The notes: a model not told the origin generated them from the sequence alone. 64,000 nucleotides of DNA from Candidatus Woesearchaeota archaeon (GCA_038884715.1 JAWABG010000002.1:10275-74274); one strand, 5' to 3'; positions 19,155 to 35,330 are shown, numbered from the stretch's first letter. Made by a program: numbers and translations.

Positions 19155-19619
19155 TTATCCAAAATATTTTTTGTATTCATCCATTGAACCAATATCGCTG
19201 CTACTATTCCATGACTCCTTAATTTTTTTTATTATAATTATGGTTTGGTTTTTCATGCTTTCCCATTCGCAGGTTATCTTCTCGAGTATTTTTTTAATAT
19301 CCTCCACATTATTCTTAAGAAGTGCCTCAATTATAGCTCTTTGATAATACATAAACTTTCTATATATTAATACTATTTCTTTTTTTTCTTTTTCATTTAA
19401 AAAGCTATATTCATGGATTGCGGAATAGTTGTTCTCAGGCTGTAGTACTGCTTCAAGAATTTTTGAAATATTCTCCATTCTTTCAAGAATTCGTCTTAAT
19501 CCTTCTTTTAAAGGATTTTTCATATCTTTATTGTAATAGAAATCAAATTCATTTTCCAGAAAATTAAAATACATAATTCTAGTTTCATTAATTTTTTTTG
19601 ATTTTTTTCTCATTCTCAA
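19155..19619 (-). CDS. Hypothetical helical protein
   Basis: 154-aa ORF with no motif I recognise. Confidence 0.35.
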   Translation of the reverse strand: MRMRKKSKKINETRIMYFNFLENEFDFYYNKDMKNPLKEGLRRILERMENISKILEAVLQPENNYSAIHEYSFLNEKEKKEIVLIYRKFMYYQRAIIEALLKNNVEDIKKILEKITCEWESMKNQTIIIIKKIKESWNSSSDIGSMDEYKKYFG

Positions 19620-19897: not shown

Positions 19898-19922
19898 AGA
19901 TTACATTTTAATAAGATTACAT
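19898..19922 (+). promoter_or_regulatory. Direct repeat agattacat x2 (16-bp register), candidate RHH operator
   Basis: Copies at 19898-19906 and 19914-19922, 36-60 bp upstream of the first RHH gene. Confidence 0.3.
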
Positions 19923-19957
19923 ATGGGTATTTTAACAAAATTTAATGAACCAGTCTT

Positions 19958-20140
19958 ATGTTGAAAATGAATAAATCCTCAAACAATATTGAAATAACTA
20001 CAGTCAGAATACCTAAAGAAGTAACAAACATTCTTGATTATTTAATTAAAATTGGATTATACAATTCTAGGAGTGAAGCAATCCGCGAATTTTTAAGAGA
20101 GTTTGTTAATGAATATTCCAGAAATCTGAAAGAAAAGTGA
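19958..20140 (+). CDS. Ribbon-helix-helix (CopG/Arc-type) DNA-binding protein
   Basis: ITTVRIPKEVTNILDYLIKIGLYNSRSEAIREFLREFV shows the beta-strand, helix, helix pattern. Confidence 0.7.
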   Translation: MLKMNKSSNNIEITTVRIPKEVTNILDYLIKIGLYNSRSEAIREFLREFVNEYSRNLKEK

Positions 20141-20147
20141 CAATAAA

Positions 20148-20465
20148 ATGAGAAATGAGACAATAGTAAGCATAAGACTTCCAAAATCCTTAGTTAAGGA
20201 ACTAAAAATTATTTCTGAAAAGGATCATTATAAAGATCTTAGTGAATTGATAAGGTATGTTGTTAGAAAAAGATCTTTGGATTATATTAAGGATTATATT
20301 AATTATGATTATATTAATTATATTAAGTTTGATGTAAGAAAAATAAAAGAAAATTTTTTCAAAAAACAAAAAGCTAAAGAAGAATATCAAGAAAAAGAAA
20401 AAAACAAAGAAAAGATATTAAGCGAATTAAAAAAAATTATAGAGGATTTAAAAAATGAATTATAA
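20148..20465 (+). CDS. Ribbon-helix-helix DNA-binding protein with a Lys/Glu-rich tail
   Basis: TIVSIRLPKSLVKELKIISEKDHYKDLSELIRYVVRK. The stop overlaps the next gene's start by 11 nt. Confidence 0.65.
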   Translation: MRNETIVSIRLPKSLVKELKIISEKDHYKDLSELIRYVVRKRSLDYIKDYINYDYINYIKFDVRKIKENFFKKQKAKEEYQEKEKNKEKILSELKKIIEDLKNEL

Positions 20466-23400
20466 AACTAGTGAAAAAATCAGCACTAAATCCAAATGTT
20501 TGTTGCTGGTCGCTGCAATGCTTATTTTATTTACATTTAATTTTGTAAGTGCAGTAAGTTTAGTTTCTCCTGTTAATGAAAGTTGGAAAAATACAACAGA
20601 AGTAATTTTTACTTTTATTCTTAGTGAGCAAGATTTGATCAACACTTCAGAGATAAGTATGATTATTAATCTGAGCGGTAATGGTTCTTCAAATCAGACT
20701 CGAGAAGAAATACTTAATGTGAGTGAACTTTTAAACCAAACAAGATGTACACTCAAGATAGATAATGCTAACATTACTACTACTATTTCAGTCTTAGGTC
20801 AGAATTCAATCTTTGCAAATTTAAGTGATGGAGCTCATAATTGGAAGATTAAGTGTGAGTTATCAGAGTCTGAAATTAGGGTAATTAATATTGACACGAT
20901 TCCACCATTCATATCTCTACTAAGTCCATTAAATAATAGTATTCTCGAAGTGTCAGGAATTACGTTAAATACTGATTTTGTGTTTGTTTCAGAAGACAAT
21001 TCACCAATACAGCAATGCAACATATATTTGTATTCTAATTTTATCAACATAACAGAATCACTTAATTATACTCAAACCCCCCAAATACATAAAGTTAACA
21101 ATATGCTCTTGGGTAATTACAGTTGGAAAGTAAGATGCAAAGATTATGTAGGAAATATGAGAACAAGCGATATATTTAATTTTAATATTGATCAAGTTCA
21201 GAATCCTAATTTTGACATTACATTTTCTAAACAGACTCTTAACATTGGAGAAGAAGGTAATATGATTATAAATGCAAATCCGAGTGCTCTTGTCCAATAT
21301 CTTCAGATAACTCCTCCGAGAGGAACAGCTTATATTTTGCCACCCATTTCAACTTTTCCATATATTCAAAAGCTTCCGCAAACAAACTATACAGGAATTT
21401 ACAATGTTTTTGGAATCATGATTTATAGAAACCAATTCTATAATATATCTAAGCAATACGAGATTGCTAACAATATGCAAATTCATATTTCTGGATTAAG
21501 AGATATTAATGCTTCAGAAACAATAACCTTGAATATGACTGCATCAGGAGGAATTGCTCCATATACGTACTATTGGATTGAGGAAAATTCAGACCATTCT
21601 AGAACAAATGGGCAAGTTTTTAGTAAAAAATATGATTCAGAAGGAAATTTCATTATTAATGCCGTTGTTCAAGATAGTTTCGGCAATAACAAAACCAGAT
21701 TAGTAACAATAGATGTAAATAAGTATTACAACTTAACCTTAATTGTTAAGGATACAAATAATAATCCATTAGAGGATGTATTAGTAATTGTGGATGATAA
21801 TGCAAATCGAACAGAAACTCATGGAAAAGTAAGCTTATTGCTTAAAGCAGGAGAATATAAAATTACGGCCACAAAAGACGGATATTTGACAAATACCACC
21901 GAGATAAATATCTCATCTAACAAAGAAATCGTACTAACACTTATAAAAAATGATATACTGAAACCACTAATTACATTAGAGACATCAGAGAACGCTTCCT
22001 TTGCTGGCGAGGCAATGCTTATTTTTAGTGTTAGCCATAATAAAAAGATTGACTGCACTCTATTAATAAATCAAAACGAGTTATCTTTTGAAAAAAAATC
22101 CACAATATCTGATGTTAATACAAGCAAAAAGCAATCATTTATTCTGAATCTTCCTGCAGGAACATATAATTGGAAAATACAATGCACAGATTCCTCAGGC
22201 ATAATTGGCGAGTCATCTGAAAGAACATTTTTTGTTTCTATTAATTCAAAAACAAACGAAAAGTTTCCCATTCAAAGCACTATTCCGACTAATGATTTTG
22301 CAGATTTTTTATCAATGCTAGAAAATTCTTTAACTTCTTATGAACACTACTCGAAAGAGCAAAAAGAGGTTGCTGAATTATTCAAGTTCAATACAAATAT
22401 TAATAATGCAATAAATGCAATAGAACGGGCAAGAATAGACATTGCAAACATTAATAGAATGGGTGCATTAAGTGATGAGCAGAGGTTAGATAAAATCAGG
22501 GAGATTAAAGAACGAATAGATTCCATATTAAAAGAGACATTACTTGATGTTCAAGTATCAGATACAACAGCGTTTATAAAATATCCTGAAAATAAAAATG
22601 TAGAGAAAATTTTGGATGAGTATTATACTGCCAAAAATTATAAATTAAATAAGAATGCTTTTATTTCAGCAAACAAGAAAATTCAGTCAAAATTACTGAC
22701 AACAACCAAAGTCTATATTGTGAATCTTGAATTGTTTAATAATAGTAAAAAAATAACGTTAGTATTAAGGGAATTAAAATTTGATGATGCCTCAACATAT
22801 AATGTAATAGAATATATTCCCAAGAGTCTTGCAGAGTCAGGTTCTGAAATAACTCTGGTGACTGCCGGAACAATAGTTAAAGACGATCCAATAATAGAGT
22901 ATGACAATATAGGAAATAATGATAATATGGGAGATAACACAGATCAGAATAATAAAATTTTCAAAATTGTTTATTATTATCCAAAACCAATTATTGTTGA
23001 GGAGATAAAAAATTCAGATACATTAATAATTTCTCAAAATATAAAAAATTCAGCCATTACTGGTTTTTCAATCCTAAGCAATATTAATATTAGGTTTAAA
23101 AAAATAGTCTATTTTTTAATTCCAGGAATAATTATTGCAGTGATATTATTGATAACTCTTAAAATTCCTCAAAAAGTGTTTCAACCGAGCAATCAAAATT
23201 TTGGAAATACAAAAATCTTTCCTTTAAAAAGCTCAACTAATGAGAAATTGAATTTAGTTATAATGATTAATGAGGCAAAGGATTTAATTTCTCACGGCAG
23301 AATTGATGATGCTACAAAAAAATATAATGCGATTCATCTTCACTACACTAATTCTTCTGAAAAAATCAAAAAAGAATTCCTTAATGATATATTGATAGTT

Positions 23401-23622
23401 TATTCAACTATTATGACGTCGATGGTGAATAGTCTAATCGACAACTGTTATTCGTGTTTGGAAAAAAACATGATTGAAGACGCAATAAAGATATATGAAC
23501 AGATTAGCCAACAATATATTCTTTTGACTGATGATCTTAAGAATCAATACTATGCCAGGTTATCTAATCTTGCAGAAAAGATAAATTTTCACCAACTTAT
23601 GTATGGAAAAAGACATGATTAA
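20455..23622 (+). CDS. Large type-I surface protein: Ig-like repeats, PKD and CarboxypepD_reg-like domains, TM helix, cytoplasmic TPR-like tail
   Basis: Signal/TM helix (CLLLVAAMLILFTFNFVSA). Repeated motif HNWKIKC / YSWKVRCKDYVGN / YNWKIQCTDSSG. PKD-like TASGGIAPYTYYW...VVQDSFGN. CarboxypepD_reg-like LIVKDTNNNPLEDVLVIVDD...YKITATKDGY. TM helix VYFLIPGIIIAVILLITL, followed by a helical tail. Confidence 0.65.
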   Translation: MNYKTSEKISTKSKCLLLVAAMLILFTFNFVSAVSLVSPVNESWKNTTEVIFTFILSEQDLINTSEISMIINLSGNGSSNQTREEILNVSELLNQTRCTLKIDNANITTTISVLGQNSIFANLSDGAHNWKIKCELSESEIRVINIDTIPPFISLLSPLNNSILEVSGITLNTDFVFVSEDNSPIQQCNIYLYSNFINITESLNYTQTPQIHKVNNMLLGNYSWKVRCKDYVGNMRTSDIFNFNIDQVQNPNFDITFSKQTLNIGEEGNMIINANPSALVQYLQITPPRGTAYILPPISTFPYIQKLPQTNYTGIYNVFGIMIYRNQFYNISKQYEIANNMQIHISGLRDINASETITLNMTASGGIAPYTYYWIEENSDHSRTNGQVFSKKYDSEGNFIINAVVQDSFGNNKTRLVTIDVNKYYNLTLIVKDTNNNPLEDVLVIVDDNANRTETHGKVSLLLKAGEYKITATKDGYLTNTTEINISSNKEIVLTLIKNDILKPLITLETSENASFAGEAMLIFSVSHNKKIDCTLLINQNELSFEKKSTISDVNTSKKQSFILNLPAGTYNWKIQCTDSSGIIGESSERTFFVSINSKTNEKFPIQSTIPTNDFADFLSMLENSLTSYEHYSKEQKEVAELFKFNTNINNAINAIERARIDIANINRMGALSDEQRLDKIREIKERIDSILKETLLDVQVSDTTAFIKYPENKNVEKILDEYYTAKNYKLNKNAFISANKKIQSKLLTTTKVYIVNLELFNNSKKITLVLRELKFDDASTYNVIEYIPKSLAESGSEITLVTAGTIVKDDPIIEYDNIGNNDNMGDNTDQNNKIFKIVYYYPKPIIVEEIKNSDTLIISQNIKNSAITGFSILSNINIRFKKIVYFLIPGIIIAVILLITLKIPQKVFQPSNQNFGNTKIFPLKSSTNEKLNLVIMINEAKDLISHGRIDDATKKYNAIHLHYTNSSEKIKKEFLNDILIVYSTIMTSMVNSLIDNCYSCLEKNMIEDAIKIYEQISQQYILLTDDLKNQYYARLSNLAEKINFHQLMYGKRHD

Positions 23623-23726
23623 ATCCCGCTCATTAATATGGATATCGTCAAAAAATTTACAATATGACAAACTAATACAAAAAATCAAATGAAAAAACAA
23701 AAGAAAAAACTCGGCAAGAATTTCAA

Positions 23727-26700
23727 ATGACTAATAAAAAACTTTTTCGAAATGATCTGATTATAATTTGTTTATTAATAGTTTTAGCTCTTGCAGGTTT
23801 AATCTATTTTGTGAATTATACAGGATATGCCTCGCTTGAGAGTAGAGGAGGAACCATAACAGAAATAAAGATAGCAAATATTCTTGGAAATCCGGAGTAC
23901 TGGTCGGGAGTTCATGGCGTTGCTGTTCTTGTGCCAGAATATAATTTACCGTTTAGTTTGGATGTTTACGCTAATAAAATTCATTTAGGTATTTTTCTTT
24001 TTGAGTGCTTTCAAAGAAGAATACCTCACGAATTGTATGCGAGTTTAGTTAATTCTACTGATTTGGACTGGGATACACTTCAGCCAGCAACTCCTGAAGA
24101 TGTCGATGCGTTCTTGGGGATAAATTCAACAAACAGCAATGTTTCTGCAACAATTATGTTTAGAGACAATATGACTGTTCAAATCGGAAATAGAACTTTT
24201 GTAGTTCCCTCACTATATACTCGTAAGCTTGATGAAAATGAGCCTCACACTTATGATACTGGCATAATGAAAGACGGTAATGGTAATTTGGTTTTTGTAA
24301 GCCATATTTATCTATACAATATGTCCTTATGTTATTATGGTGGTTTGTGTAATTATCAAATGCTTCTTCCAGTAAGAAATTGTACATATCTGATTAATGA
24401 AACTACTGATTGTTTTACTAATCCAACAAATTATAAAGGTTATGAGCATTATTATTTTTTTAATGATCCTACTGACTATTGTCCTAGAGGAGAAAATCCG
24501 TTTCTTGATTATGGAAATATTTCTGGGAATGTTACAGATGCATCTGGCAATCCACTTAATGACGTGCTTATAGTTGTTGGAGAGTATGGAGCAATGAGCA
24601 ATATTTCAAATCCTATAAGCCATTATCATATCAGAATGCCGGTAGGCGAATATTATATCTTTGCTGTAAAATCAGGATATCAAACCTACCTTAATAAGGT
24701 TAATATTACTTTTGAAAATATGACTTTTCATAATATTATTATGCAGCTAATGCCTATACCGAATTACAATTATAATACTCAGACACATGATTTTGATTAT
24801 GAATATGAGATTAAACCCGAAATTCAGATGCCTGCAAGAATTGAGGGGCAAGACTTTATTATATCTATAAGCTCAATAAATAAAACAATAAGAATGGGTG
24901 AGTTTATTCAAGAGGTTATAAATTTTCAAAACCTTAAGAATAGGACAATAACTGTGAATATCGAGATAAATGGAGCAGTCAAGGATTTGATTCAATTTGA
25001 TAACAAAAGGTTAGTTATTCCACCCGGAGAAACTCTTCCTTTAGTTCTAACAATATTTGGTAAAAAAGAGCCTGGTGTCTATGATGGTTATCTTAATGTG
25101 TCGGGTGATATTAATATATTGATTCCAATAACTATTACAATTGTAAAAGACAGACTTCCTGTTGAGGCATTGCTTTTGGATGTTGAGGTTTATAATAAAG
25201 TAGTTAATATAGGAGACAAAGTACAATTTAGGACGAAATTAAATAATATGCTTACAGCAATACCCTATCCTGTATCTCTAAAATTTACAATTCAAAACAA
25301 ACAAGGAAATGAAACATACTGGTATGATACAGCAAATATTAACTTAATAACTTCTTTTTCAATATTTAAAGAAGTGAAAATACTTGACAGAATGAAGCCA
25401 GGAGATTATGTTGTCAGGGTAACTGCAGAGTATCTTGACTTGTCCTCAAGCGCGAGCGACAGCTTTCAAGTTGTAATACCAGTTTACATGTTTAATATAT
25501 TAGGATTTCCTGTATGGAAATGGTTGCTACTACTCCTTATGTTGTTACTGGCTTATTTAACATATAGATTAATCAAGAAATATATAAGATCTAAAAAGAA
25601 ATATGATGTGCCCATTGATATTAGTTCATTACCTAAAAAAGATAAGAACGCCTTGTATGTTGGTTTACTTGCTGAAACAAAAATTAAAGCTTATTTGAAT
25701 ATTGATAACCTGACTACCCACATGATAGTGGCGGGTTCTACAGGTGGAGGTAAATCATTTAGTGTGCAAGTTATTGTTGAAGAGGTCCTACAAAAAAGAA
25801 AATCAGTTTTGGTCTTTGATCCAACAGGCCAGTGGACGGGATTCTTAAAAAAATTGACAGATAAAACCTTACTAAGAAAATATCCTGAGTTTGATATGGA
25901 TAAAAATATGGCAAAAGGCTCAGATGGAAACATTAAATTAATTAACAATCCATATGAGGAGATTGACCTTAAAAAATTTATTAAGCCAGGTGAAATACAA
26001 ATATTTGTTCTGAATAGGTTGCGGCCAGAAGAAATTGATATTTTTATAGGTAACACGATAATGCAGGTTTTTAATCAGAAATTTGAGGAGTCAAGAGAAT
26101 TAAAAACTCTTCTAGTTTATGATGAGGTCCACAGATTGCTTCCAAAATTTGGAGGAAGTGGTGTTGGATTGTTGCAGCTTGAAAGAGGGTGTAGAGAATT
26201 TAGAAAATGGGGTATAGGATTAGTAATGATTTCTCAAGTACTAGGTGACTTTGTTGAAGAAATCAGGGCGAATATTGGTACAGAGATTCAGATGCGTACT
26301 AGAGATGAAAATGATCTACAAAGAATAAAGGAAAAATATTCAGATATTTTCGAGAAAGCTCTTCTTAGATCTGTCGTCGGAACAGGTATGATTCAGAATG
26401 CAGAATATAATAATGGAAGGCCTTACTATATAACATTTAGACCAATCATGCATAGTATTCAAAAACTTTCAGAGGAAGAATTAAACAAGTATTCAGAATT
26501 AAATGATACTTTGTTAGATATCGAATATCAAATTGAGCAGTTAGAGAAAGAGAAGCAGGATATATTTGACTTGCAGCTCGAATTAAGACTTGCATATGAT
26601 AAACTAAGGACTGGAGCATTTAGTATAGTAGAGGTTTATCTTGAGGGTCTCATTCCTAAAATTGATAATATTTGGAAAAAGTTAGGTAAGAAGCCATTAA

Positions 26701-28523
26701 AAAGGGAAGTTAAACTAATAGACACAAAAATAATGGAGCAGGAGATGAAAAAAGCAGAAGAAGCAAGAAAAAGATACGAGCAAAATGCTCAGCAAGAAAT
26801 TATTCCTAAAGACAATACTAACGACTTACAAAAAATACCTAATTCAAACCATCCAAATACTGAATTACAAATAAATGAAAAAAAATCAACCTCAAATATT
26901 ACCGATAATGGATTCCCAAAATTTGAATATTCTTTACCAATTACGAGGGCAATAACATTTAATGATGGTCAATCTGCTACTAGTTTATCTGAGTTAATTG
27001 ATGTTCTGGACGGAATGACAGTTTCGACATTTAAGAATCATGTATCAAAACAAAAAAACGATATCGCCGAATGGATAAAAAAAGAATTTAATGATGATAA
27101 TCTGAGTAAAAAACTAGAAAAGTCAACAAAAAAAGAAGAAATGATTAAATTACTAAACACTGAAAAATCAAAAAATGAAAAAATTATTTTTAAGGATGAA
27201 AATACTAAGGATAACCTGAAAACTACAGAAAAATCATTCACGCTTAAAAAAGAACCAGGACCGATTATCGATAATAAAAATTTAGATGAAAAATTTGTAA
27301 AATCAGAATTAGAGACTCAACAAAAAACGGATAAAATAAAGAATGATTTACTAAGCGAGTTAACAGAATCTGAACAACATATTTCAAGCAATAAAACAAA
27401 AAAAAAAAGAAAGAGTCTTTTTGGATTTTTATTCAATAGAAAAAAGTCTGAAATAAAGCAGGATGGAGATTTTGACTCAGATCAAAAAACTGCTCAAGAA
27501 ATTAAAATCACGGAAAAACAAGTTAGAGATAATAAACTACAAAAAATTTCAGGTGAACAAATAAACAAGTCAATTTTAGGATTCTTGAAAAGTAATAAAA
27601 ATAGTTTGAGCACAAATAAGAAAAAAAAGGATAATTTGATGCCTGAACTTTTAATTCATGAACCATCAACCCTTAAAGAAACGAAGGAATTACTAAGCGA
27701 AGGTATCAACATTAAAGATAATAAAGATAAGAAAGAAGAAAAAAAGAGTATTCTAAAAACAGAAAATATTGATCAAACGAGGATATTTAATTTATCTGAT
27801 ACATTAAATTATAAAACCGAAGAATCCAATGAGAATTTAATTAAAAAAGATGAAGAAACATTAAAAAAAGAGATAGAGACTCGTTTAAAAGAAGAATTGA
27901 GTAAGCAGTTAAAGAAAGAATTTGAGAATAATCTTCGAAGAGAGATAGAGGCGAGAATAAGAAGGGAAATAGAGGATGAATACAACAGAAAACAGAGTGA
28001 GCAAAAACTCGATGTATCCGGAGTTACCAAAGTTCAAATTTCTGAAACTAGTACTGAAAACCCTAAACGCCCAAGCGAAAAAATTGAGCCAGTGGTTGAA
28101 AATAAAAAATCCAGTCAAGATAAAGAAAAAACTCTCGAGAAACGTTTCTCAGATATTGATTTTACAAAAATTAATGCAGAGGAATTGAAGTACAGAGCAG
28201 ATAGTCTTGAAACAATTGATGAGAAAATATTCTTATTGGAAAAGGGAGAAAAATATTTTGATTCTGATCCAAATATTAAGTTTTCTCTGGCTGTTCTTTA
28301 TCAGCTAAAGACAGATTATGAAAATGCTGAAAAGCAATATAAAAAAATACTTCAAATTAGTCCAAATAATATAGAGATTATGATGAGGTTGGGGCTTGTG
28401 CTCAAACATGAAAAAAAATATGATGAAGCTATAGACTATGTAAGGAGGGTATTAGTTATAGAACCAAAAAATATAAAAGCTAAGATGTTGCTAGAACAAC
28501 TAGAAGGTGAGAAGGCATTATGA
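23727..28523 (+). CDS. 1598-aa chimeric membrane protein: extracellular beta-rich domains, TM, HerA/FtsK-superfamily (DUF87-like) ATPase, coiled coil, NDF.NWI domain (copy 2), K/E-rich region, C-terminal TPRs
   Basis: TM1 is LIIICLLIVLALAGLIYFV. CarboxypepD_reg-like GNVTDASGNPLNDVLIVV...YYIFAVKSGY. TM2 is WKWLLLLLMLLLAYLTYRLI (about 25510-25575). Walker A is THMIVAGSTGGGKS (25731-25757) and Walker B is LLVYDEVHRL (about 26109-26135). TPR repeats lie at about 28150-28520. Confidence 0.75.
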   Translation: MTNKKLFRNDLIIICLLIVLALAGLIYFVNYTGYASLESRGGTITEIKIANILGNPEYWSGVHGVAVLVPEYNLPFSLDVYANKIHLGIFLFECFQRRIPHELYASLVNSTDLDWDTLQPATPEDVDAFLGINSTNSNVSATIMFRDNMTVQIGNRTFVVPSLYTRKLDENEPHTYDTGIMKDGNGNLVFVSHIYLYNMSLCYYGGLCNYQMLLPVRNCTYLINETTDCFTNPTNYKGYEHYYFFNDPTDYCPRGENPFLDYGNISGNVTDASGNPLNDVLIVVGEYGAMSNISNPISHYHIRMPVGEYYIFAVKSGYQTYLNKVNITFENMTFHNIIMQLMPIPNYNYNTQTHDFDYEYEIKPEIQMPARIEGQDFIISISSINKTIRMGEFIQEVINFQNLKNRTITVNIEINGAVKDLIQFDNKRLVIPPGETLPLVLTIFGKKEPGVYDGYLNVSGDINILIPITITIVKDRLPVEALLLDVEVYNKVVNIGDKVQFRTKLNNMLTAIPYPVSLKFTIQNKQGNETYWYDTANINLITSFSIFKEVKILDRMKPGDYVVRVTAEYLDLSSSASDSFQVVIPVYMFNILGFPVWKWLLLLLMLLLAYLTYRLIKKYIRSKKKYDVPIDISSLPKKDKNALYVGLLAETKIKAYLNIDNLTTHMIVAGSTGGGKSFSVQVIVEEVLQKRKSVLVFDPTGQWTGFLKKLTDKTLLRKYPEFDMDKNMAKGSDGNIKLINNPYEEIDLKKFIKPGEIQIFVLNRLRPEEIDIFIGNTIMQVFNQKFEESRELKTLLVYDEVHRLLPKFGGSGVGLLQLERGCREFRKWGIGLVMISQVLGDFVEEIRANIGTEIQMRTRDENDLQRIKEKYSDIFEKALLRSVVGTGMIQNAEYNNGRPYYITFRPIMHSIQKLSEEELNKYSELNDTLLDIEYQIEQLEKEKQDIFDLQLELRLAYDKLRTGAFSIVEVYLEGLIPKIDNIWKKLGKKPLKREVKLIDTKIMEQEMKKAEEARKRYEQNAQQEIIPKDNTNDLQKIPNSNHPNTELQINEKKSTSNITDNGFPKFEYSLPITRAITFNDGQSATSLSELIDVLDGMTVSTFKNHVSKQKNDIAEWIKKEFNDDNLSKKLEKSTKKEEMIKLLNTEKSKNEKIIFKDENTKDNLKTTEKSFTLKKEPGPIIDNKNLDEKFVKSELETQQKTDKIKNDLLSELTESEQHISSNKTKKKRKSLFGFLFNRKKSEIKQDGDFDSDQKTAQEIKITEKQVRDNKLQKISGEQINKSILGFLKSNKNSLSTNKKKKDNLMPELLIHEPSTLKETKELLSEGINIKDNKDKKEEKKSILKTENIDQTRIFNLSDTLNYKTEESNENLIKKDEETLKKEIETRLKEELSKQLKKEFENNLRREIEARIRREIEDEYNRKQSEQKLDVSGVTKVQISETSTENPKRPSEKIEPVVENKKSSQDKEKTLEKRFSDIDFTKINAEELKYRADSLETIDEKIFLLEKGEKYFDSDPNIKFSLAVLYQLKTDYENAEKQYKKILQISPNNIEIMMRLGLVLKHEKKYDEAIDYVRRVLVIEPKNIKAKMLLEQLEGEKAL

Positions 28524-29191
28524 TAGGTCCTGAAAAATATTTTTATCTATGCAATGGTGATGTACTGAGGAGTATTGAAGAGTTATATGATTATGTGAGC
28601 ATAATGCCAGATTTTGTTTTTTACCATCATGTGTCTAAGGAGCGTAATGATTTTTATAACTGGATAAAAGATGTTTTTCAAGATATTGGGCTAGCTAACC
28701 AAATAAAGGAAATAATAAATAAGGATGATTTTGTAGAGTTTTTTAAGAATAAAAAAGCAAATTCACAAAACATTAAACAGATAGCAGAATTAATGGAAAA
28801 ATTAAATGAAACAAAAATAAATAAAGAGGAGAGAAAGATAATAAAAGAATACAAGGAAAATAGTAGTAAGAAATTAAACGAGGATAAAATTTATGATCCT
28901 AAAGATCAAGAGAATAAGAGAATAATAATAAATAATTTGAATAATCAAATCGAGATCTCAAAAAAAGAAATTTCTGATCTTAGAAAAAAAGGAAAGGATG
29001 TTTTTTTATGTCAGATTTATTTTGATATTATTAAGGCGAAACAAAAAATTGCCGAGTTGAGTTTGGATGATAGGGATATTGATTTGTTAAGGGAATTAAA
29101 TGATAAACTAAAACAAGAAATTGAGTATTCAAAGAAAAACGAGGAAATAAATATTAGAAATGAAATTCAAGAGAAAGTAGAAATGCATTAA
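28520..29191 (+). CDS. NDF.NWI-domain (copy 3) plus coiled-coil protein
   Basis: FYLCNGDVLRSIEELYDYVSIMPDFVFYHHVSKERNDFYNWIKDVFQDIGLANQI. ATGA start/stop overlap with the 1598-aa gene. Confidence 0.6.
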   Translation: MIGPEKYFYLCNGDVLRSIEELYDYVSIMPDFVFYHHVSKERNDFYNWIKDVFQDIGLANQIKEIINKDDFVEFFKNKKANSQNIKQIAELMEKLNETKINKEERKIIKEYKENSSKKLNEDKIYDPKDQENKRIIINNLNNQIEISKKEISDLRKKGKDVFLCQIYFDIIKAKQKIAELSLDDRDIDLLRELNDKLKQEIEYSKKNEEINIRNEIQEKVEMH

Positions 29192-29295
29192 TGTTGTTTT
29201 AATATTTTAATATTTCATATTTTATTACTTATTGCTAAATAAATAATAAAAATAAATAAAGAATCGAAGAATAATAAAAAAGAGGTTGGCTTAAT

Positions 29296-30090
29296 ATGGG
29301 ATTATTCTCATTTGGGAAAAGAAAAAAAAGTAAAAATGAAGAAAATGATACTCAAGACTTTGATGAGTTTGACGAGCCAAAGGAAATAAAAATTAATTCT
29401 GATACTCTTGATTTAAACCTTAAAATTTCAAAGCTTACAGCACAGGTTGAATCATTAATGGAGCTTAGAAATTCATATAATGAGAGATTTCAGCAATTTT
29501 CTCAGCAACTCGGCGAAATAAGAATGATGGCTATGGATACGAATAGGTCTGTGCAACTAATACAACAAACAGCAGCAAAAGCTACAGAACTTATTGAACA
29601 AGTTCAGGCCGAGAAAATCCTAATGGAGATTGCTAAACAAGAGCAAAGACTTGAAATATTAAAGGCAAATATAGAAACAAATGATAGTGTGATACATAAG
29701 ATAATTGATGAATTAAAAGAAATTCGCAATCAGATGTCTTTTTATAAAGGAACACAACAGGTAATTGAGTTATTCAGTGAAATGAAAGAAAATTTGGTAA
29801 CGATGAAGAAAATTGAAAATAATGTTGTTAGGCATTCTGATAAAACCGAGCACATGTTTATAAATTTTGAAACAGTTCTTGCTAAGATTGCATATATTGA
29901 AAAGGGCTTTGAAGATCTACAAACAAATATTAAACTATTTACTAAAGAGCAAAAAGAAAAACAACAATCTGATTATAAATATTTGGAATTAAAAGTAGAG
30001 GATTTAAAAGTGCAATTGCAAGAAACTATACTTCAATTAAACAAAAGGTTGGATAAGTTCAGGGAAAATGTTAATAAGATTGAGTTTTGA
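29296..30090 (+). CDS. All-helical coiled-coil protein with a basic amphipathic N-terminus
   Basis: MGLFSFGKRKKSK, then an acidic linker and long heptad-like helices. No catalytic motif. Confidence 0.5.
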   Translation: MGLFSFGKRKKSKNEENDTQDFDEFDEPKEIKINSDTLDLNLKISKLTAQVESLMELRNSYNERFQQFSQQLGEIRMMAMDTNRSVQLIQQTAAKATELIEQVQAEKILMEIAKQEQRLEILKANIETNDSVIHKIIDELKEIRNQMSFYKGTQQVIELFSEMKENLVTMKKIENNVVRHSDKTEHMFINFETVLAKIAYIEKGFEDLQTNIKLFTKEQKEKQQSDYKYLELKVEDLKVQLQETILQLNKRLDKFRENVNKIEF

Positions 30091-30326: not shown

Positions 30327-31280
30327 TTATCTATAGAATTTGGCGGCGTCCTCTGGACTGATAGGGTTAATTATTATCCCTGTTTCGTATTCAAAACCTG
30401 CCCAGGTTGATAATCTTGGTGTAATCTCAAAATGTAAGTGAAGATTATTAACTCCTTGCTTTATTAGAATATTGAAAGGAGCGTTTATCAGTTTAAGCTT
30501 TTGTGTGATATATAGCAGTTGGTCAGCTATTTCATATTTTTCCTGGTCGTTAAGATCTGTTAGTTCTTTTATATCTCTTTTTGGAAAAACCCAAGCTTCC
30601 ATAATAAATCTTGATGCGTAAGGTGTGAAAGAAATCGTTGAATTTGTTTCTTTAATTCTCCTAAAGCTGTCTTTCTCTGAATTAATTATGCCACAATATG
30701 GACAATAATAATTTTTTTTCAAAAATTCATTTACTTTATTCTCTGCTATAAGAATGTCTGGTGGGATAACATTTATGCTTACCAGTTGCCAATGTGTATG
30801 CACAATTGATGTTCCAGCTTCTTTTTTGTGATTTTTAAAAATAACAATGTATTTTGTATTGGCGTTTTTTTTTAGTTCACGCATTCTATAACAAAAAACA
30901 TCTAACACTTCTTTTATTCTGTCAATGCTTAAATCCCAAAATTGTTGATTGATGTCTGGGGTTTCCACTATAATTTCATGCTTGCCAACCGCATCAGCGT
31001 ATGTGTAGAATGTATTGTCTGTTGAAATGCTAATCTTTCCCGCATTGCCAACTGCGGAGTATAGGTTTGGAAAAACCCTAATTTTCCAGTTACCATTATT
31101 ATCATTAACTCTGAAAATTTCTTCTGGCGTCAATTTTTCATTCCCGGGACCAAAAGAATCAATTTTTACTTCTTCTTGAATCTCATTTTTTTTAAATTGA
31201 TCAGGTCTTTTAGCTCGCTCAGTAGCGATTATTACATAATAATCCAGCAGATAATCTTTTCTCAATTCCAAGTATTTCAT
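30327..31280 (-). CDS. GalT-like (HIT superfamily) hexose-1-phosphate nucleotidyltransferase/phosphorylase
   Basis: His triad variant HTHWQ, a CPYC zinc motif, and a typical N-terminus ELRKDYLLDYYVIIATERAKRP. Confidence 0.7.
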   Translation of the reverse strand: MKYLELRKDYLLDYYVIIATERAKRPDQFKKNEIQEEVKIDSFGPGNEKLTPEEIFRVNDNNGNWKIRVFPNLYSAVGNAGKISISTDNTFYTYADAVGKHEIIVETPDINQQFWDLSIDRIKEVLDVFCYRMRELKKNANTKYIVIFKNHKKEAGTSIVHTHWQLVSINVIPPDILIAENKVNEFLKKNYYCPYCGIINSEKDSFRRIKETNSTISFTPYASRFIMEAWVFPKRDIKELTDLNDQEKYEIADQLLYITQKLKLINAPFNILIKQGVNNLHLHFEITPRLSTWAGFEYETGIIINPISPEDAAKFYR

Positions 31281-31351
31281 CCTCTTTTTTTATATAACAT
31301 TTTTTATTTTTATATAATTTTCATATAATAATCTCCTTTATTTTTATATAT

Positions 31352-33181
31352 TTATTTTTTTAATGCAAGATTGTGTGCTTCAATATAATTTTTAATAAGA
31401 AATTTCCAGTCTGCCAGCAAGGCAAGATTTTTTGCATCAATCTTTTTTTCGACTCTATCAGCATGACTTAATTCAGAATACTCTTTCAATATCTCAAAAA
31501 ATTTTTGTACAACCTCATCCTCAGTTTTTTGAAACCTGTCTAAAACATACATTCCCGAATTTTTGTCTTTAAGCCTTGGTTTGATAAATCTTCCGAACCC
31601 GGAAAGGTCGGTTGTCAGACTGCAAACACCAAGCGCTGCACCCTCTAAAGGGGTATATCCCCATGGCTCGTAATAACTCGGAAATAATCCTAAATGACAA
31701 CCAGCCATAGCATCATATAAAGGAAGGTTAATAAGACCGTCATCTCCATCTAAATAAACCGGATATATTATTGCCTTTACTGGATCATCTTCTTTATTAT
31801 CTACACCCAAGTCTCTTAGGGTTTTAACTACTATGTTATTATCTTCATTTATTAAGTAATGTGTTGATAGTGGTGGATTGCCCTTTCTCCTGAAATGAAG
31901 AATATTTTTTCTACCTTCTGTTAGAAATTCCTTTGTGAAAAGACTCTCGCTTGTTATGTTTTTCTCCAAAATCAAATCATATGTAATTCTTTTAAGCAAT
32001 TCAGCAGAGTTCCATTGTACAAAATTCTTTATATGCTGGTAGTATGATTTGTTTTCCATCATCTCTGTTCTTAATCCTCCATGTTCCATAGGAACCCAGA
32101 ACATAGCACATATTGTTCTTTTGCTGTTTTTTATTTTCAAGTAATCATTTAATTTTGCTAAAGCTTTAATAAATATGTCAATTCCCTTGTTTCTATACTC
32201 AAATCTCCCACTAATAAAGAAGAGAAGGCTGTGCTCTAAATCGAAGGCGTAGTGTGGAAAAAAATAATAAGTTAAAAACTCCCTAATCTTTTCTCTACAA
32301 GTTACGTGTTTTATACTTGTTTCTTCTATAGTTGGAAATTTTTCCATATCTAATCCGTTTAATACAAGGACTTCTGGCTTTCTGCCAAGGATTTTTTCTG
32401 CCTCAATACTAGTGATCTCTGAAACAGTTGTAAATATATCTGTTGCATTTGCGCAAGCCTTTTCTGTTAAATATTTATCTTGTACACCCAAAGAATATGC
32501 TTCTTTGTCTGGATCAATCTTTTCAAGATTTTCATACAATTGCCCTCCACTTCCCGCTATACTTCTGCCCAGCATTGTGGCGTGTGTTGTAAATACTGTT
32601 CTAATTTTAGAATTTGTTTTTTTTAGATAAAGTATTATTCCTCCCGCCATCCATTCATGACAATGCACAACAATTTTTTTATTTTCAAGTTTATTTTCAA
32701 TTATCTGAAGTAATCTTCCCACTGAATAAGACCACATCATTGGCTCATCAAAATCCCAATTTGATCTTAGCGAGTCAATCTTATAATCTTCCCACATTTT
32801 TTTTCTAAGATCATTTTTTTGTGGAATTCTTGCAGAAAAATCAATTAAAATTGTTAATGGTTCACTTTCTGCATCTATCCACTTACCAAAATAACAGATA
32901 ATTCCTTCATTATTTGCTTGATTGAATGACTTCTCTAAAAATTCAGGTGGATTCAATTTTTCAAAATGTATTTTTGCATTATTCTCAAAATATGGCCCTA
33001 TTAGAAAATAATTATTCCTACCATAATACTCAACCATTCTTGCAGTCTTGCTTTTTACAACAGTAAATATTCCACCAACTTTGTTGCAGACCTCCCAAGA
33101 ACTCTCGAATAAATAATCTGCTTCAGCCTTAATACTGTTTTGAGTTTTCTTTGTTTCATTTTTATTATCTTTTTGATTCAT
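31352..33181 (-). CDS. Glycogen synthase, eukaryote-type GT3 family
   Basis: FESSWEVCNKVGGIFTVVKSK, HCHEWMAGG, FTTHATMLGR, FISGRFEYRNKG and LFPSYYEPWGYTPLE are collinear with animal and fungal glycogen synthase motifs recalled from memory. Confidence 0.85.
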   Translation of the reverse strand: MNQKDNKNETKKTQNSIKAEADYLFESSWEVCNKVGGIFTVVKSKTARMVEYYGRNNYFLIGPYFENNAKIHFEKLNPPEFLEKSFNQANNEGIICYFGKWIDAESEPLTILIDFSARIPQKNDLRKKMWEDYKIDSLRSNWDFDEPMMWSYSVGRLLQIIENKLENKKIVVHCHEWMAGGIILYLKKTNSKIRTVFTTHATMLGRSIAGSGGQLYENLEKIDPDKEAYSLGVQDKYLTEKACANATDIFTTVSEITSIEAEKILGRKPEVLVLNGLDMEKFPTIEETSIKHVTCREKIREFLTYYFFPHYAFDLEHSLLFFISGRFEYRNKGIDIFIKALAKLNDYLKIKNSKRTICAMFWVPMEHGGLRTEMMENKSYYQHIKNFVQWNSAELLKRITYDLILEKNITSESLFTKEFLTEGRKNILHFRRKGNPPLSTHYLINEDNNIVVKTLRDLGVDNKEDDPVKAIIYPVYLDGDDGLINLPLYDAMAGCHLGLFPSYYEPWGYTPLEGAALGVCSLTTDLSGFGRFIKPRLKDKNSGMYVLDRFQKTEDEVVQKFFEILKEYSELSHADRVEKKIDAKNLALLADWKFLIKNYIEAHNLALKK

Positions 33182-33259
33182 TTTTTCTTGATTTAATATT
33201 TTACTTTAATTATTATATTACTAATTATTACATTAATAGTTATAGTGAATAATAAAATC

Positions 33260-33631
33260 TTATAACAGCAATTTTCCTATTATGCCACCAGCCACCAATC
33301 CAATTATGAGTCCAATCAAAAAGTCTTTTAATAATGTAAAATCACTTATTATATGACTTTTTCCAATCTCTTTTGTTAGTAAACTTGTTCTATTGTCTAT
33401 ACTTCTTAGTACTTCTTCTTTAGTTTTTGATTGGCGTACTGAATCTGCAAGTATTTTATCTTCCAAGCTGTACTCAATCCAGTTAGCAAAATCATTTTTG
33501 TCATTATTTAGATGATGAGAAAACTCTTCATCATTCATTGTTTCTATTGCTTTTTTTAATTCAAAGATGTTCTTAGCTTTAATGTTATTCTTTGCAATAA
33601 ATACCTCATCCTCTTTTGCTTCTTTTATCAT
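33260..33631 (-). CDS. NDF.NWI-domain protein (copy 4) with a C-terminal TM anchor
   Basis: IFELKKAIETMNDEEFSHHLNNDKNDFANWIEYSLEDKILADSV, with C-terminal LIGLIIGLVAGGIIGKLLL. Confidence 0.6.
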   Translation of the reverse strand: MIKEAKEDEVFIAKNNIKAKNIFELKKAIETMNDEEFSHHLNNDKNDFANWIEYSLEDKILADSVRQSKTKEEVLRSIDNRTSLLTKEIGKSHIISDFTLLKDFLIGLIIGLVAGGIIGKLLL

Positions 33632-33636
33632 CTAAC

Positions 33637-33984
33637 TCACCATAATTCTTTTATTATATATTCATAAATTTTTTTTTGAATCTCTTGTTTATTCTTTAGA
33701 TGTCTAATTTGTTCTGCTAATTCTGTTTCATCAAAAACATCTCTTATCCAATTGGAGAAATCATTCCTTTCATCATTGACATGATGAAAAAAGACAGCAT
33801 CCTCCATTTTACCCATTTCTTCAGCCAACTCTTTAATGTTTTTTATCTTTTTTCCGTCTCTGAGTATAAAAAAATACTTGTTTTCAATATCTTTTTTTAT
33901 TTTTGAAATACCAGCTTTATTTTTAGTTAGATTTTTATGCATAGAACTATTTCTAATTTTTTTTTTATTTTCCAAAGTTCTCAA
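33637..33984 (-). CDS. NDF.NWI-domain protein (copy 5)
   Basis: FFILRDGKKIKNIKELAEEMGKMEDAVFFHHVNDERNDFSNWIRDVFDETELAEQI. Confidence 0.6.
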   Translation of the reverse strand: MRTLENKKKIRNSSMHKNLTKNKAGISKIKKDIENKYFFILRDGKKIKNIKELAEEMGKMEDAVFFHHVNDERNDFSNWIRDVFDETELAEQIRHLKNKQEIQKKIYEYIIKELW

Positions 33985-34085
33985 CCTCTTTTATGTAAAC
34001 TTTATTTGTCTAACTTTCTAATCTCAAATAAACCCGCCAACTCAAATCTTTGATTTAGTTGTTGGTATATATAAATATTGTGATA

Positions 34086-35330
34086 TTATCTATTTATTGT
34101 TGTTGGAATATTATTTTGAACTATTTTTTGATCAATACATTTTTTATGTGCATTTATTCTTATCTGAATGTCGTGAATTACATTCATAAAATTTATAAAT
34201 GCTTCATATGGTGAATCATATGGATTGAAGTATTTATGTACGTCTCCATCATTAAACCATTTTGTGCACATATAATAAAAATGATCGCTTGTCTGTAATT
34301 TTCTCCAATTGTTAATGATCTCCGGATCGTTTGTTTTTAGTACATCTTGCTCTATTTCGTAGAGTTTGTGAATTGCTGATTGTTGCATTCTATTGCCGAG
34401 CCAAGCACTTAGATCTCGCTCAATGTCTGCCCACGAAATAAAATTATGGATGTCTACTTCGTCCATCGGTTCATATTGTAATAAATCTGATGGGTTCTTG
34501 AATTCAAGGTGTTTGTATTTTAGAATTTCATTAGGAAGATGGGATAAAAAATTAAAGATTCCTGTATCTTCCCATTGGTGCTCTCCGAATGTTTCATAGT
34601 CCATAAAAAGATTTATAGTTTGGCCTTGAGTTGCAGCAATCCACGAGGCAAACTTGTCCGCTAACAATGGGTGCTGTTCCCAACCTTTATTTGAAAATCT
34701 AAATGCTATATCATCGCTTAGTTTATAATTTTTTAATAGTAGCTTTAAGTTTTTTGTTGTTTTTGCCTTGTAAACATAGTTTGGGCTTCTCCAGCCAAGA
34801 ATATGGTCTGCTCCTTCTGCTATTATTCCTTTATAACCCATGTCTTCAATAAAATGAGCTAACTCATTATTGTATATTAATTCTGTATTTCTAAAAATTT
34901 TTGGTTTTTGGTTAAATAATGATTTAATTTTATGTTTATGTAAGTTAACCTGTTCTTTGAATTCTTTTTTTGAGTATAGATATGACAGAGAATGATGATA
35001 TGTCTCGCTTAGGATTTCAACATAACCAGTATCATTTAGCTTTTGAAACGATTCTATTACTTCTGGAGTATATTCTTCAAATTGTTCTAGGACAACTCCT
35101 GTGAAGCTATACGCAACCTTGAATTTGCCATTGTATTTATTTATTAAGTCTAACATTATTTTATTAGTTGGAAGATAGCACTTATTAGCAACTTTTTCAA
35201 TAACAAATTTATTTTTTGCATCATCGAAGTAATTAGTGTTGTGTCCAATATCGAAAACTCTGTATTTTCTTATTCTGTATGGTTGGTGTACTTGAAAATA
35301 AAAACAAATACTTGTCATTGTGATTTTCAA
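34086..35330 (-). CDS. Glycoside hydrolase family 57 (alpha-amylase / branching-enzyme type)
   Basis: N-terminus CFYFQVHQPYR, then ...EILSETYHHSL... and ...MDYETFGEH, consistent with the GH57 catalytic region. Confidence 0.75.
   Translation of the reverse strand: MKITMTSICFYFQVHQPYRIRKYRVFDIGHNTNYFDDAKNKFVIEKVANKCYLPTNKIMLDLINKYNGKFKVAYSFTGVVLEQFEEYTPEVIESFQKLNDTGYVEILSETYHHSLSYLYSKKEFKEQVNLHKHKIKSLFNQKPKIFRNTELIYNNELAHFIEDMGYKGIIAEGADHILGWRSPNYVYKAKTTKNLKLLLKNYKLSDDIAFRFSNKGWEQHPLLADKFASWIAATQGQTINLFMDYETFGEHQWEDTGIFNFLSHLPNEILKYKHLEFKNPSDLLQYEPMDEVDIHNFISWADIERDLSAWLGNRMQQSAIHKLYEIEQDVLKTNDPEIINNWRKLQTSDHFYYMCTKWFNDGDVHKYFNPYDSPYEAFINFMNVIHDIQIRINAHKKCIDQKIVQNNIPTTINR

Follow-up and report, generated by a model that had tools for sequence, protein, structure and literature searches.

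A conserved six-gene module of DPANN archaea centred on a putative membrane-anchored HerA-clade ATPase

Membrane-anchored motors of the FtsK/HerA superfamily, such as FtsK, TraB, CedB, EssC and CmdB, are a known kind of machine. FtsK/SpoIIIE and Streptomyces TraB are membrane-anchored pumps for double-stranded DNA (dsDNA), and TraB moves dsDNA between cells as a single protein. The type VII secretion system (T7SS) ATPases EssC and EccC carry FHA domains, two transmembrane (TM) helices and 2-3 tandem ATPase domains, and serve the export of WXG100/LXG proteins. The archaeal, chromosomally encoded Ced and Ted systems contain a membrane-bound HerA/VirB4-like ATPase (CedB/TedB) that is proposed to power DNA transport, and are defined by a VirB6-like channel with 6-7 TM segments (CedA/TedA) together with a VirB2-like pilin (CedA1/TedC) (PMC9905601). 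The six-gene chromosomal operon cmdABCDEF of Streptomyces encodes membrane proteins and a membrane-located FtsK/HerA/VirB4 ATPase, and its mutants show defects in chromosome segregation and septation (PMC2782261). Here we describe a module of this kind, encoded by six + strand genes (P1-P6) within positions 19898-30090 of a 64,000-nucleotide (nt) stretch of DNA (hereafter the window) from a Candidatus Woesearchaeota archaeon. New to the kind are an ATPase of the HerA clade proper fused to a large ectodomain, the lack of a channel or pilin partner, and three unannotated partner families.

DPANN archaea, host-dependent for the most part and with tiny genomes, make up much of archaeal diversity, and to our knowledge almost nothing is known about the machines with which they build their envelopes, divide or connect to other cells. 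The module is among the few large gene sets that are conserved over several DPANN phyla yet almost wholly unannotated; it joins a motor of the ATP-driven DNA-pump superfamily directly to the cell surface, and it may show how DPANN cells move material across the envelope or divide. Whichever role applies, whether DNA transfer, division or envelope assembly, it is a concrete candidate that can be tested in cultured DPANN systems, and it gives the uncharacterised OrfY/DUF5752 domain a new context. The six genes are as follows, with lengths in amino acids (aa).

19958-20140, + strand: P1, 60 aa, a ribbon-helix-helix (RHH) protein that opens the operon
20148-20465, + strand: P2, 105 aa, a second RHH protein with a charged helical C-terminal extension
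20455-23622, + strand: P3, 1055 aa, a predicted bitopic surface glycoprotein
23727-28523, + strand: P4, 1598 aa, an ectodomain-TM-HerA ATPase protein, the core of the module
28520-29191, + strand: P5, 223 aa, predicted cytoplasmic, with an OrfY/DUF5752-like and a helical domain
29296-30090, + strand: P6, 264 aa, a long-helix protein with terminal hydrophobic-basic motifs

The original prediction, made from the sequence of the window, had described six + strand genes with two overlaps and short gaps, and its coordinates were reproduced: P2 and P3 overlap by 11 nt and P4 and P5 by 4 nt (ATGA), while the remaining intergenic gaps measure 7 nt (P1/P2) and 104 nt (P3/P4 and P5/P6), 104 nt being the largest. 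Pfam likewise returned the domain calls it had made for P1, P2, P3 and P4. P2-P6 are identical to the public proteins MEM4259760-64 of a Candidatus Woesearchaeota metagenome-assembled genome (contig of 94.9 kb), four of them named 'hypothetical protein' and P4 'DUF87 domain-containing protein'. Together with literature searches in which no paper describing the module was found, this agrees with the suggestion that the combination was previously undescribed. The exact 60-aa translation of P1 is missing from the protein collection in which P2-P6 are present; the public record probably uses another start, e.g. the ATG at 19967, or left the gene uncalled.

To place the module among its relatives, we used a census of one genome per GTDB species and fetched 78 loci (L001-L078), whose open reading frames (ORFs) were searched with the window proteins and then with family hidden Markov models (HMMs); surveys of neighbouring genes were extended to 85 loci. 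Relatives of the ATPase occur in no fewer than 521 species genomes, and a collection of 5.8 billion proteins contains over 425 homologues of the TM+ATPase core. These are 42-59% identical among the 120 matches listed, and nearly all of the listed matches that bear a taxon name are from DPANN archaea. Counting only loci with enough flanking sequence on the relevant side or sides, the complete collinear six-gene set was present in 31 of the 42 loci with both flanks, 43 of 51 had P1, P2 and P3 ahead of the ATPase gene in the same orientation (44 of 51 a P3 homologue directly upstream), and P5 and P6 lay downstream in 46 of 62. P1 homologues were detected in 51 of the 78 loci, and P2 is kept directly after P1 in related loci. 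Median identity to the window proteins was 54% for the ATPase, 48% for P1, 38% for P2, 37% for P6, 34% for the P4 ectodomain (over ~570 aa), 33% for P5 and 26% for the P3 ectodomain. Such an arrangement is far from what chance would give, and with gene order preserved at this divergence there is strong evidence that the six genes form a functional unit. The prediction of a genuine conserved operon-like module thus held over the collinear loci, and the genes, whose failure to occur together in related genomes would have spoken against it, do co-occur across DPANN genomes.

The protein at the centre of this operon, P4, is organized from its N-terminus as a signal/anchor, an ectodomain of ~560 aa, a TM helix, the ATPase, a three-helix bundle, an OrfY/DUF5752-like domain, a low-complexity region rich in K and E, and TPR repeats. 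Its parts map to the window as follows.

23817-25496, + strand: ectodomain (aa ~31-590), beta-rich, with one CarboxypepD_reg-like and two conserved membrane-proximal beta-sandwich domains
25509-25562, + strand: TM helix (aa ~595-612), followed by the basic cluster KKYIRSKKK
25584-26471, + strand: ATPase domain (aa ~620-915), a P-loop domain assigned to the HerA clade
26472-26684, + strand: three-helix bundle (aa ~916-986; DIFDLQLELRLAYDK...VEVYLEGLIPKI), modelled as helices 326-351, 357-371 and 375-396 (numbering of the AlphaFold model described below)
26952-27167, + strand: OrfY/DUF5752-like 'NDFAxW' domain in the tail (aa ~1076-1147), domain HMM E 4e-25
28209-28502, + strand: TPR repeats (aa ~1495-1592), matching Pfam TPR_1/2/8/19

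Hydropathy marks two hydrophobic segments in P4, at aa ~10-30 and ~595-612, and N-X-S/T sequons are distributed unevenly around the second, aa 30-528 containing 18 and the ~1000 residues on the cytoplasmic side 7. Because of this asymmetry and of the basic cluster that follows the TM helix, the ATPase is placed in the cytoplasm and the ectodomain outside. We modelled aa 591-1000 with AlphaFold (AF2) from an alignment of 61 sequences; the model (pLDDT 94.5, pTM 0.91) comprises a long N-terminal helix, the ATPase core and the C-terminal three-helix bundle, and its aa 596-623 form one continuous helix that takes in the TM and juxtamembrane segments. With the Walker A motif ~55 residues past the TM helix in this high-confidence model, the ATPase lies just inside the membrane as had been proposed, and the topology gave no sign of the extracellular ATPase that would have contradicted the proposal. 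The ectodomain found no match among PDB sequences, and the TPR repeats, which were detected in no more than 14 of the 78 loci, are accessory.

The ATPase domain carries Walker A (GSTGGGKS, aa 669-676), Walker B (YDEVH) and a REFRKWG...SQ motif, all invariant or nearly so across the 61 aligned sequences, and because of this the enzyme is probably active. Pfam assigned it to DUF87/HerA central (E 4e-15, 57 bits against a cutoff of 23) and also matched HerA_C. The significant matches in a search of PDB sequences were to HerA-type proteins only, including the SIR2-HerA subunit 8wiv (3e-11) and Sulfolobus HerA 4d2i (6e-10); a VirB4-like match was insignificant (E 0.72). Foldseek comparison of the model with the PDB gave the same picture, the best 45 matches all being HerA chains, led by Sulfolobus HerA 4d2i (2e-13) and including Thermococcus and Deinococcus HerA-NurA, SIR2-HerA and DUF4297-HerA, followed by the coupling protein TcpA (4e-9) and EccCb1 (8e-9, rank 50). 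No FtsK chain occurred among the PDB sequence matches or the best 50 fold matches, and no VirB4 chain among those 50. Judged by sequence and model, the P4 family is a HerA-clade branch whose N-terminal HAS-barrel has given way to a TM helix and an ectodomain, and it is not orthologous to VirB4, FtsK or the coupling proteins. Pfam, PDB sequences and Foldseek therefore agree with the earlier placement in the HerA/FtsK superfamily. The combination that had been named as contrary evidence, clustering with soluble HerA and a lack of conserved neighbours, was found only in its first half: the nearest relatives are soluble HerA proteins, yet conserved neighbours are present.

The hexameric HerA DNA translocases (archaeal HerA-NurA, bacterial SIR2-HerA and DUF4297-HerA) are thus the best match by sequence and by fold, sharing with P4 the RecA-like ATPase core and the HerA-type motifs. 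P4 differs in having no HAS-barrel (no Pfam match at E<=0.1) and a TM helix within ~30 residues before the ATPase, and the P4 family adds an ectodomain of 560-1,500 aa, the C-terminal bundle, OrfY-like domains and TPR. Unlike known HerA complexes, the module has no NurA, Mre11, Rad50, Sir2 or DUF4297 partner in the operon, its flanks or the 85 loci; P3, P5 and P6 stand there instead. Since the HAS-barrel and the NurA partner are both absent, this is not a HerA-NurA system. The nearness of P4 to HerA subunits of defence complexes, which are among its best PDB and fold matches, raises the idea of a HerA-based anti-phage system like SIR2-HerA or DUF4297-HerA, and the HerA models of PADLOC do match P4, with E down to 1e-15. 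The other five proteins, however, match no PADLOC effector model and give only coiled-coil noise, and there is no Sir2, DUF4297, nuclease or other effector. Moreover, gene order, single copy number and core-chromosome synteny are conserved in hundreds of species rather than in variable islands, a membrane anchor with a large ectodomain is unknown in defence HerA proteins, and no member of the family was found in viral contigs. With no effector in the module, we reject a defence system, which seems to us very improbable.

The other described systems share the logic of the module more than its parts. FtsK/SpoIIIE and Streptomyces TraB belong to the same superfamily and are likewise membrane-tethered hexameric motors, but P4 reaches only 15.3 bits on PF01580 (cutoff 24), has no gamma/wHTH domain and one TM helix where FtsK is polytopic, and scores 16 bits on the NCBIfam TraB model against a cutoff of 800; it further differs from both in its large ectodomain and in a fold nearer to HerA. 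Ced, Ted and the type IV secretion systems (T4SS) have in common with the module a chromosomal system built around a membrane-bound ATPase of the superfamily. The VirB4 match of P4 is nevertheless insignificant (a comparison made with PDB chains), and we found no polytopic channel or two-TM pilin, each of the six products having at most two hydrophobic segments and no such protein being a conserved neighbour in the 85 loci. Since a VirB6-like channel and a VirB2-like pilin are both absent, the module is neither Ced/Ted nor a T4SS. The originally predicted contact-dependent uptake or export device finds no direct support here, and the module has no channel-forming polytopic protein or pilin of the kind those systems have. 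EssC and EccC resemble P4 as membrane-anchored FtsK/HerA-superfamily ATPases that act with single-pass and small helical proteins, but P4 has a single ATPase domain, Pfam matched neither FHA nor WXG100, and the surface proteins carry Sec-type signals; because of those signals and the single ATPase domain, T7SS-like export is unlikely. The cmd operon, finally, is bacterial, has no demonstrated homology in its accessory proteins, encodes an ATPase without an ectodomain, and lacks an RHH pair and a P6-like coiled coil, so that the likeness is a functional analogy only.

Beyond the close relatives, the part of the module that persists is P4 together with P6. A P6 homologue follows the ATPase gene in Micrarchaeota (L079, E 5e-57), Aenigmatarchaeota (L081, E 3e-20), Pacearchaeota (L085, E 3e-93) and L083, a metagenome contig with the same gene order as L081 (E 4e-23), and it is also found in Altiarchaeales (L080, E 1e-46), where a KaiC-like ATPase is inserted between it and the HerA-like ATPase. 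An ectodomain-TM-ATPase protein and P6 were found together in all six DPANN lineages checked, and the DPANN-wide core is the fusion of ectodomain, TM helix and HerA ATPase plus P6. Apparent ATPases of 355-420 aa, considered as an ancestral core without an ectodomain, proved to be artefacts of gene calling or frameshifts. In the Micrarchaeota genome GCA_026396285.1 (L079 3402-9101, + strand) the public call of 366 aa is a fragment: the frame that ends at the ATPase stop stays open over 1,899 codons and encodes a sequon-rich ectodomain of ~1,490 aa and, immediately ahead of the ATPase, a TM helix, across which sequon density falls from 4.07 to 0.27 per 100 aa. Frameshifts break up the ectodomain in L083 and L084, hence the short ATPase calls. 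The sole true TM+ATPase form without an ectodomain that was encountered lies at L082 7001-9752 (+ strand), in surroundings rich in metabolic genes and unlike those of DPANN; a separate TPR protein of 500 aa follows it, where in the window TPR is fused to P4, and P6 is absent. The extra NTPases of single lineages, namely the KaiC-like ATPase (L080 9085-9762, + strand) and a ParA/MinD-family ATPase directly after P6 (L081 3498-4256 and L083 9666-10421, both + strand), may hint at function.

P6 belongs to a new family and is the universal partner of the ATPase. At 50% identity the family falls into 982 representative clusters, for 363 of which E is below 1e-30, and neither Pfam, PDB sequences nor Foldseek gave a family assignment; a search of its long members for domain fusions gave nothing informative. 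P6 itself consists of the N-terminus MGLFSFGKRKK, an acidic disordered linker (to aa ~33) and helices at 35-102, 105-219 and 224-263, the three long helices of its AF2 model (pLDDT 79.5). Across the alignments the N-terminal motif M-G-L-F-x-K-K-K, the acidic disordered linker and a helical core of ~250 aa are conserved, and many homologues bear a second motif at the extreme C-terminus, e.g. EKKGLFGFLKK or KGFFAKLLGGGKKK. Shuffled sequences would lead one to expect a strict pattern for these terminal motifs in 4.4 homologues; 37 of 55 have it, and its occurrences are confined to the first and the last fifth of the protein. We take the motifs to resemble the amphipathic membrane-targeting sequence (MTS) of MinD, and because of this likeness P6 is read as a coiled coil that would be pinned to the membrane at one or both ends. 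A stretch in the low-complexity tail of P4 (27417-27452, aa ~1231-1242), KSLFGFLFNRKK, resembles the terminal motifs of P6. As a linear motif common to P4, P5 and P6, however, LFGFLKK was discarded, since it is systematic in P6 only and the strict pattern was found in none of 81 P4 homologues. The MGLF N-terminus and long hairpin had also suggested PspA/Vipp1/ESCRT-III, an idea we rejected: Pfam PspA_IM30 matched one of 26 P6 members at 1.4e-3 and Snf7 none, which is coiled-coil noise, Foldseek gave no match, and hhalign against approximate reference sequences gave a probability below 1%, the same as a tropomyosin control.

P5 had been described as a coiled-coil protein, which is too simple. 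In it an OrfY/DUF5752-like domain (aa ~5-80) is joined by a variable linker to a helical C-terminal domain, which is conserved and has the signature RKxGxDxxIxxLxLxxxxxKI. The N-terminal domain, of ~70 aa, has the signature ELxxxLxxMxDxxFxxHVxxxKNDFAxWI and is common to P5 and the tail of P4 (BLASTP E 2e-10), the tails of P4 homologues holding one to three copies. Its profile matches both repeats of PDB 4cso at E 7e-10, an entry named 'OrfY protein, transcription factor' in which 'transcription factor' is the depositors' label only, and 24 of 25 domain copies match Pfam DUF5752 (best E 1e-7). As single sequences, P5 scores 18.8 bits and a 123-aa protein of the window 23.0 bits at a cutoff of 23. 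We conclude that the domain is probably homologous to one OrfY/DUF5752 repeat, rather than marking full-length membership of the family. Three stand-alone proteins in the window consist of essentially one such domain each.

6821-7120, - strand: 99-aa OrfY-like protein
33260-33631, - strand: 123-aa OrfY-like protein, which also has a C-terminal TM helix
33637-33984, - strand: 115-aa OrfY-like protein

With P5 and the P4 tail this makes five domain copies in the window, and two of the stand-alone copies lie between a glycogen synthase and a GH57 gene. OrfY/DUF5752 domains otherwise occur as small stand-alone proteins in sugar and glycogen clusters, whereas here the domain is fused to a putative membrane motor and to a helical adaptor; literature searches found no paper on DUF5752 or PDB 4cso. 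Homology is probable between the C-terminal domain of P5 and the three-helix bundle of P4 (hhalign E 1.3e-4, probability 54%), and independently the P5 HMM matches the same bundle region of an Aenigmatarchaeota ATPase at E 8e-5. P5 thus looks like a free-standing copy of modules from the P4 tail in permuted order. The constant partnership of P6 with the ATPase, the motifs at both of its ends and the domain common to P5 and the P4 tail all go beyond the original prediction. The membrane-anchored HerA branch, the P6 coiled coil and the P5 adaptor make three new protein families.

We tentatively read the module as a membrane-anchored HerA-type translocase complex that acts on DNA at or through the membrane, a reading we favour while holding it at somewhat less than an even chance. 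The six genes, one conserved chromosomal operon, would encode a DPANN-specific, envelope-spanning complex with P4 as its engine. Precedents for membrane-anchored motors of the superfamily that act on DNA are CedB/TedB, CmdB, FtsK/SpoIIIE and TraB. The P4 ATPase would most likely assemble into a hexameric ring that threads a polymer through its central pore, by default dsDNA as in the characterised HerA-clade enzymes. Because a TM helix replaces the HAS-barrel of HerA, the ring would lie flat on the cytoplasmic side of the membrane, beneath six TM helices and six ectodomains. Next to the ring, P6 could serve as a stator or scaffold bound to the membrane, P5 and the OrfY-like domains and bundle of the P4 tail as adaptors or regulators, and P3 may pair with the P4 ectodomain in the envelope, while the RHH proteins would bind DNA, either autoregulating the operon or marking the substrate. 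The job of such a complex might be DNA transfer between contacting cells, as originally proposed, or the clearance or segregation of DNA at division. What the data show are the conserved operon, the architecture, topology and clade, the invariant motifs and the P6 partnership; the hexamer, its substrate, the direction of movement and the roles given here to P3, P5, P6 and the RHH proteins are what we infer.

Several observations weigh against this translocase. Neither the operon nor the 85 loci contain a polytopic channel, a pilin, a nuclease or a recognisable DNA-binding domain other than RHH and, because there is no channel, a DNA path across the membrane would have to be made of six single TM helices, possibly with P3. 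HerA-clade rings can be scaffolds instead of translocases, as in SIR2-HerA and DUF4297-HerA, both among the fold matches of P4. The OrfY/DUF5752 domain is otherwise found only in sugar and glycogen neighbourhoods, including that of the window, a hint that the module may be tied to carbohydrate status and not to DNA. The giant surface proteins that adjoin the module in other genomes carry ordinary Sec-type signal peptides. In a bolder form of the idea, P4, P6 and P3 would build a DPANN-specific trans-envelope conduit of a kind new to science that, with neither a VirB6-like channel nor a pilus, moves DNA or another macromolecule between symbiont and host, or between symbionts. We consider such a conduit quite unlikely; if true, it would represent a new class of machine for transport between cells and would give the host dependence of DPANN archaea a molecular basis.

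The two RHH proteins at the head of the operon bear on a further reading. P1 matches Pfam RHH_1 at E 8e-5 (22.9 bits against a cutoff of 20.5), and P2, which stays below that cutoff at 15.3 bits, is matched by the P1-family HMM at E 7e-8; P1 and P2 are paralogous RHH proteins. Upstream of P1 lies a pair of repeats.

19898-19906 and 19914-19922, no strand assigned: a 9-nt sequence, AGATTACAT, repeated exactly in direct orientation 36-60 nt ahead of the P1 start

They are a candidate RHH operator or promoter element, or possibly a chance repeat, the DNA being very AT-rich. Of the predicted 'dedicated RHH regulators', the assignment to the RHH family stands, whereas the proteins are generic RHH members and 'dedicated' is inferential. 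The best NCBIfam match of P1 is CdrS, a haloarchaeal division regulator, with 33.6 bits against an equivalog cutoff of 100, and a few members of the P1 family match aCcr1. We considered P1 as a CdrS orthologue that would point to division, and downgraded it to a generic RHH protein: the family matches the RHH domain of NikR as well as it does CdrS, all members score far below the CdrS cutoff, and the genes downstream of P1 are P2 and P3, not ftsZ. CdrS was not detected in DPANN by Darnell et al. (PMC7439475).

Such a division or chromosome-segregation module would make P4 a DPANN analogue of FtsK that clears DNA from the septum, P6 a membrane-bound division scaffold comparable to the anchored proteins of the MinD, SepF and EzrA types, and the RHH pair cell-cycle regulators or centromere binders, with the ectodomains of P3 and P4 coupling constriction to remodelling of the surface layer; it is a special case of a DNA pump, with an internal substrate. 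The module does look like housekeeping, being single copy, set in the core chromosome and kept in very reduced genomes, and the motifs at both ends of P6, presumed to be like the MinD MTS, would fit, as would the ParA/MinD-family ATPase after P6 in two loci of one lineage (L081 and L083). By analogy, a HerA-domain protein of Haloferax, HVO_1301, is found at midcell (bioRxiv 10.64898/2026.07.16.738847), and the Streptomyces cmd operon affects segregation and septation (PMC2782261). However, the similarity of P1 to CdrS is of the generic kind just described, neither ftsZ, sepF nor cdv genes are adjacent in any of the 85 loci, and FtsK needs no large ectodomain, yet one is constant here. We regard a dedicated role in division as doubtful, though it has these indications of its own.

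P3, whose homologue so regularly precedes the ATPase gene, turns attention to the envelope. Its hydrophobic segments, a signal/anchor at aa ~15-35 and a TM helix at ~885-905, delimit an ectodomain of ~850 aa and a helical cytoplasmic tail of ~150 aa, and of its 27 sequons 26 precede the TM helix and fall in the predicted ectodomain. Pfam detects CarboxypepD_reg above the cutoff and PKD/Big (PKD/Ig-like) domains below it. The tail had been predicted to be helical or TPR; it is helical, with no TPR match in Pfam, and is conserved as far as Pacearchaeota. The proposal that P3 and P4, the two giants of the operon, share one layout holds for the overall layout, whereas the sole detectable homology between them is the CarboxypepD_reg-like domain. 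The description of the ectodomain fused to the ATPase as adhesin-like is not supported: with median identities of 34% for P4 and 26% for P3 the ectodomains are moderately conserved and look more like structural envelope domains than fast-evolving adhesins.

In related loci a seventh gene is frequent, either an extra P5-like paralogue or a surface protein of 2,300-2,500 aa with a Sec-type signal and a sequon density of 2.4-6.4 per 100 aa. In several phyla the module adjoins genes for giant surface proteins (1,600-8,600 aa), and none adjoins the operon in the window. An upstream one at L083 1-3109 belongs to a protein of 8,615 aa, and in several Woesearchaeota loci genes for proteins of more than 2,300 aa, running off the fetched sequence, directly follow P6.

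L016 14012-21320: giant surface-protein gene after P6
L018 14461-21296: giant surface-protein gene after P6
L027 9877-16900: giant surface-protein gene after P6
L050 14163-21290: giant surface-protein gene after P6
L052 13901-21266: giant surface-protein gene after P6
L011 13643-21320: giant surface-protein gene after P6
L032 9572-16679: giant surface-protein gene after P6

The bulk of the operon encodes two bitopic surface proteins that are predicted to be heavily glycosylated, and with the neighbouring giants this would suit a machine that does not act on DNA, in which the ring pulls, unfolds or remodels the tails of P3 and P4 or other surface proteins, or else acts through the membrane by force or signalling, so that the glycoprotein layer and the giants are assembled, anchored or turned over; it would be loosely like EssC/EccC. 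EccC and TcpA are among the fold matches of P4, the tie of OrfY/DUF5752 to sugar-metabolism clusters would fit a link to glycan supply, and no DNA-processing partner is present. Set against this, P4 is related most closely, in sequence as in fold, to DNA translocases, its matches to EccC and TcpA are weaker by orders of magnitude, and there are neither WXG100-like substrates nor a multi-ATPase architecture. P3, P4 and the neighbouring giants also have Sec-type N-terminal signals and so need no special export motor, for which reason a secretion motor dedicated to the giants is disfavoured. An envelope-organizing or protein-handling machine of this type is, in our judgement, unlikely, and a small share of the probability goes to explanations other than those considered here.

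The translocase reading, like its rivals, concerns a chromosomal module. The genes flanking the operon are housekeeping (TruD, adenylate kinase, Cdc48, GatD/E, PolB, ThyX and a glycogen-synthesis cluster), the window contains no tRNA gene or Rfam match, and the viral contigs that were scanned held no relative of the ATPase; because of these three observations the module is not part of a mobile element, and a mobile-element or viral origin was ruled out. All-versus-all clustering of the ORFs at the fetched loci gave no informative further conserved neighbours. Families of minus-strand ORFs (125-160 aa, in 25-48 of L001-L078) that lie inside the P4 and P6 genes were dismissed as antisense shadows, not genes.

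Many GTDB species-representative records bearing the Woesearchaeota-type operon are titled 'uncultured Methanosarcinales archaeon' (L003, L013, L018, L019, L025, L028 and others), one (L030) is titled 'Candidatus Saccharibacteria bacterium', and two protein matches are labelled Nitrospirae and Patescibacteria; most likely these are mislabelled or misbinned DPANN contigs. Two further features adjoin the operon in the window.

19155-19619, - strand: 154-aa gene with no family match, divergent from the promoter region of the operon
30327-36562, - strand: glycogen/alpha-glucan cluster on the opposite strand, directly downstream of the operon

The cluster holds a GalT-like transferase, a glycogen synthase (PF05693, E 2e-145), two small DUF5752-like proteins, a GH57 enzyme and a GT4/GT5 glycosyltransferase. 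The 154-aa gene and the adjoining adenylate kinase gene are syntenic with the module in ~17 related loci, and the former could be a seventh component of the module or merely a case of conserved synteny.

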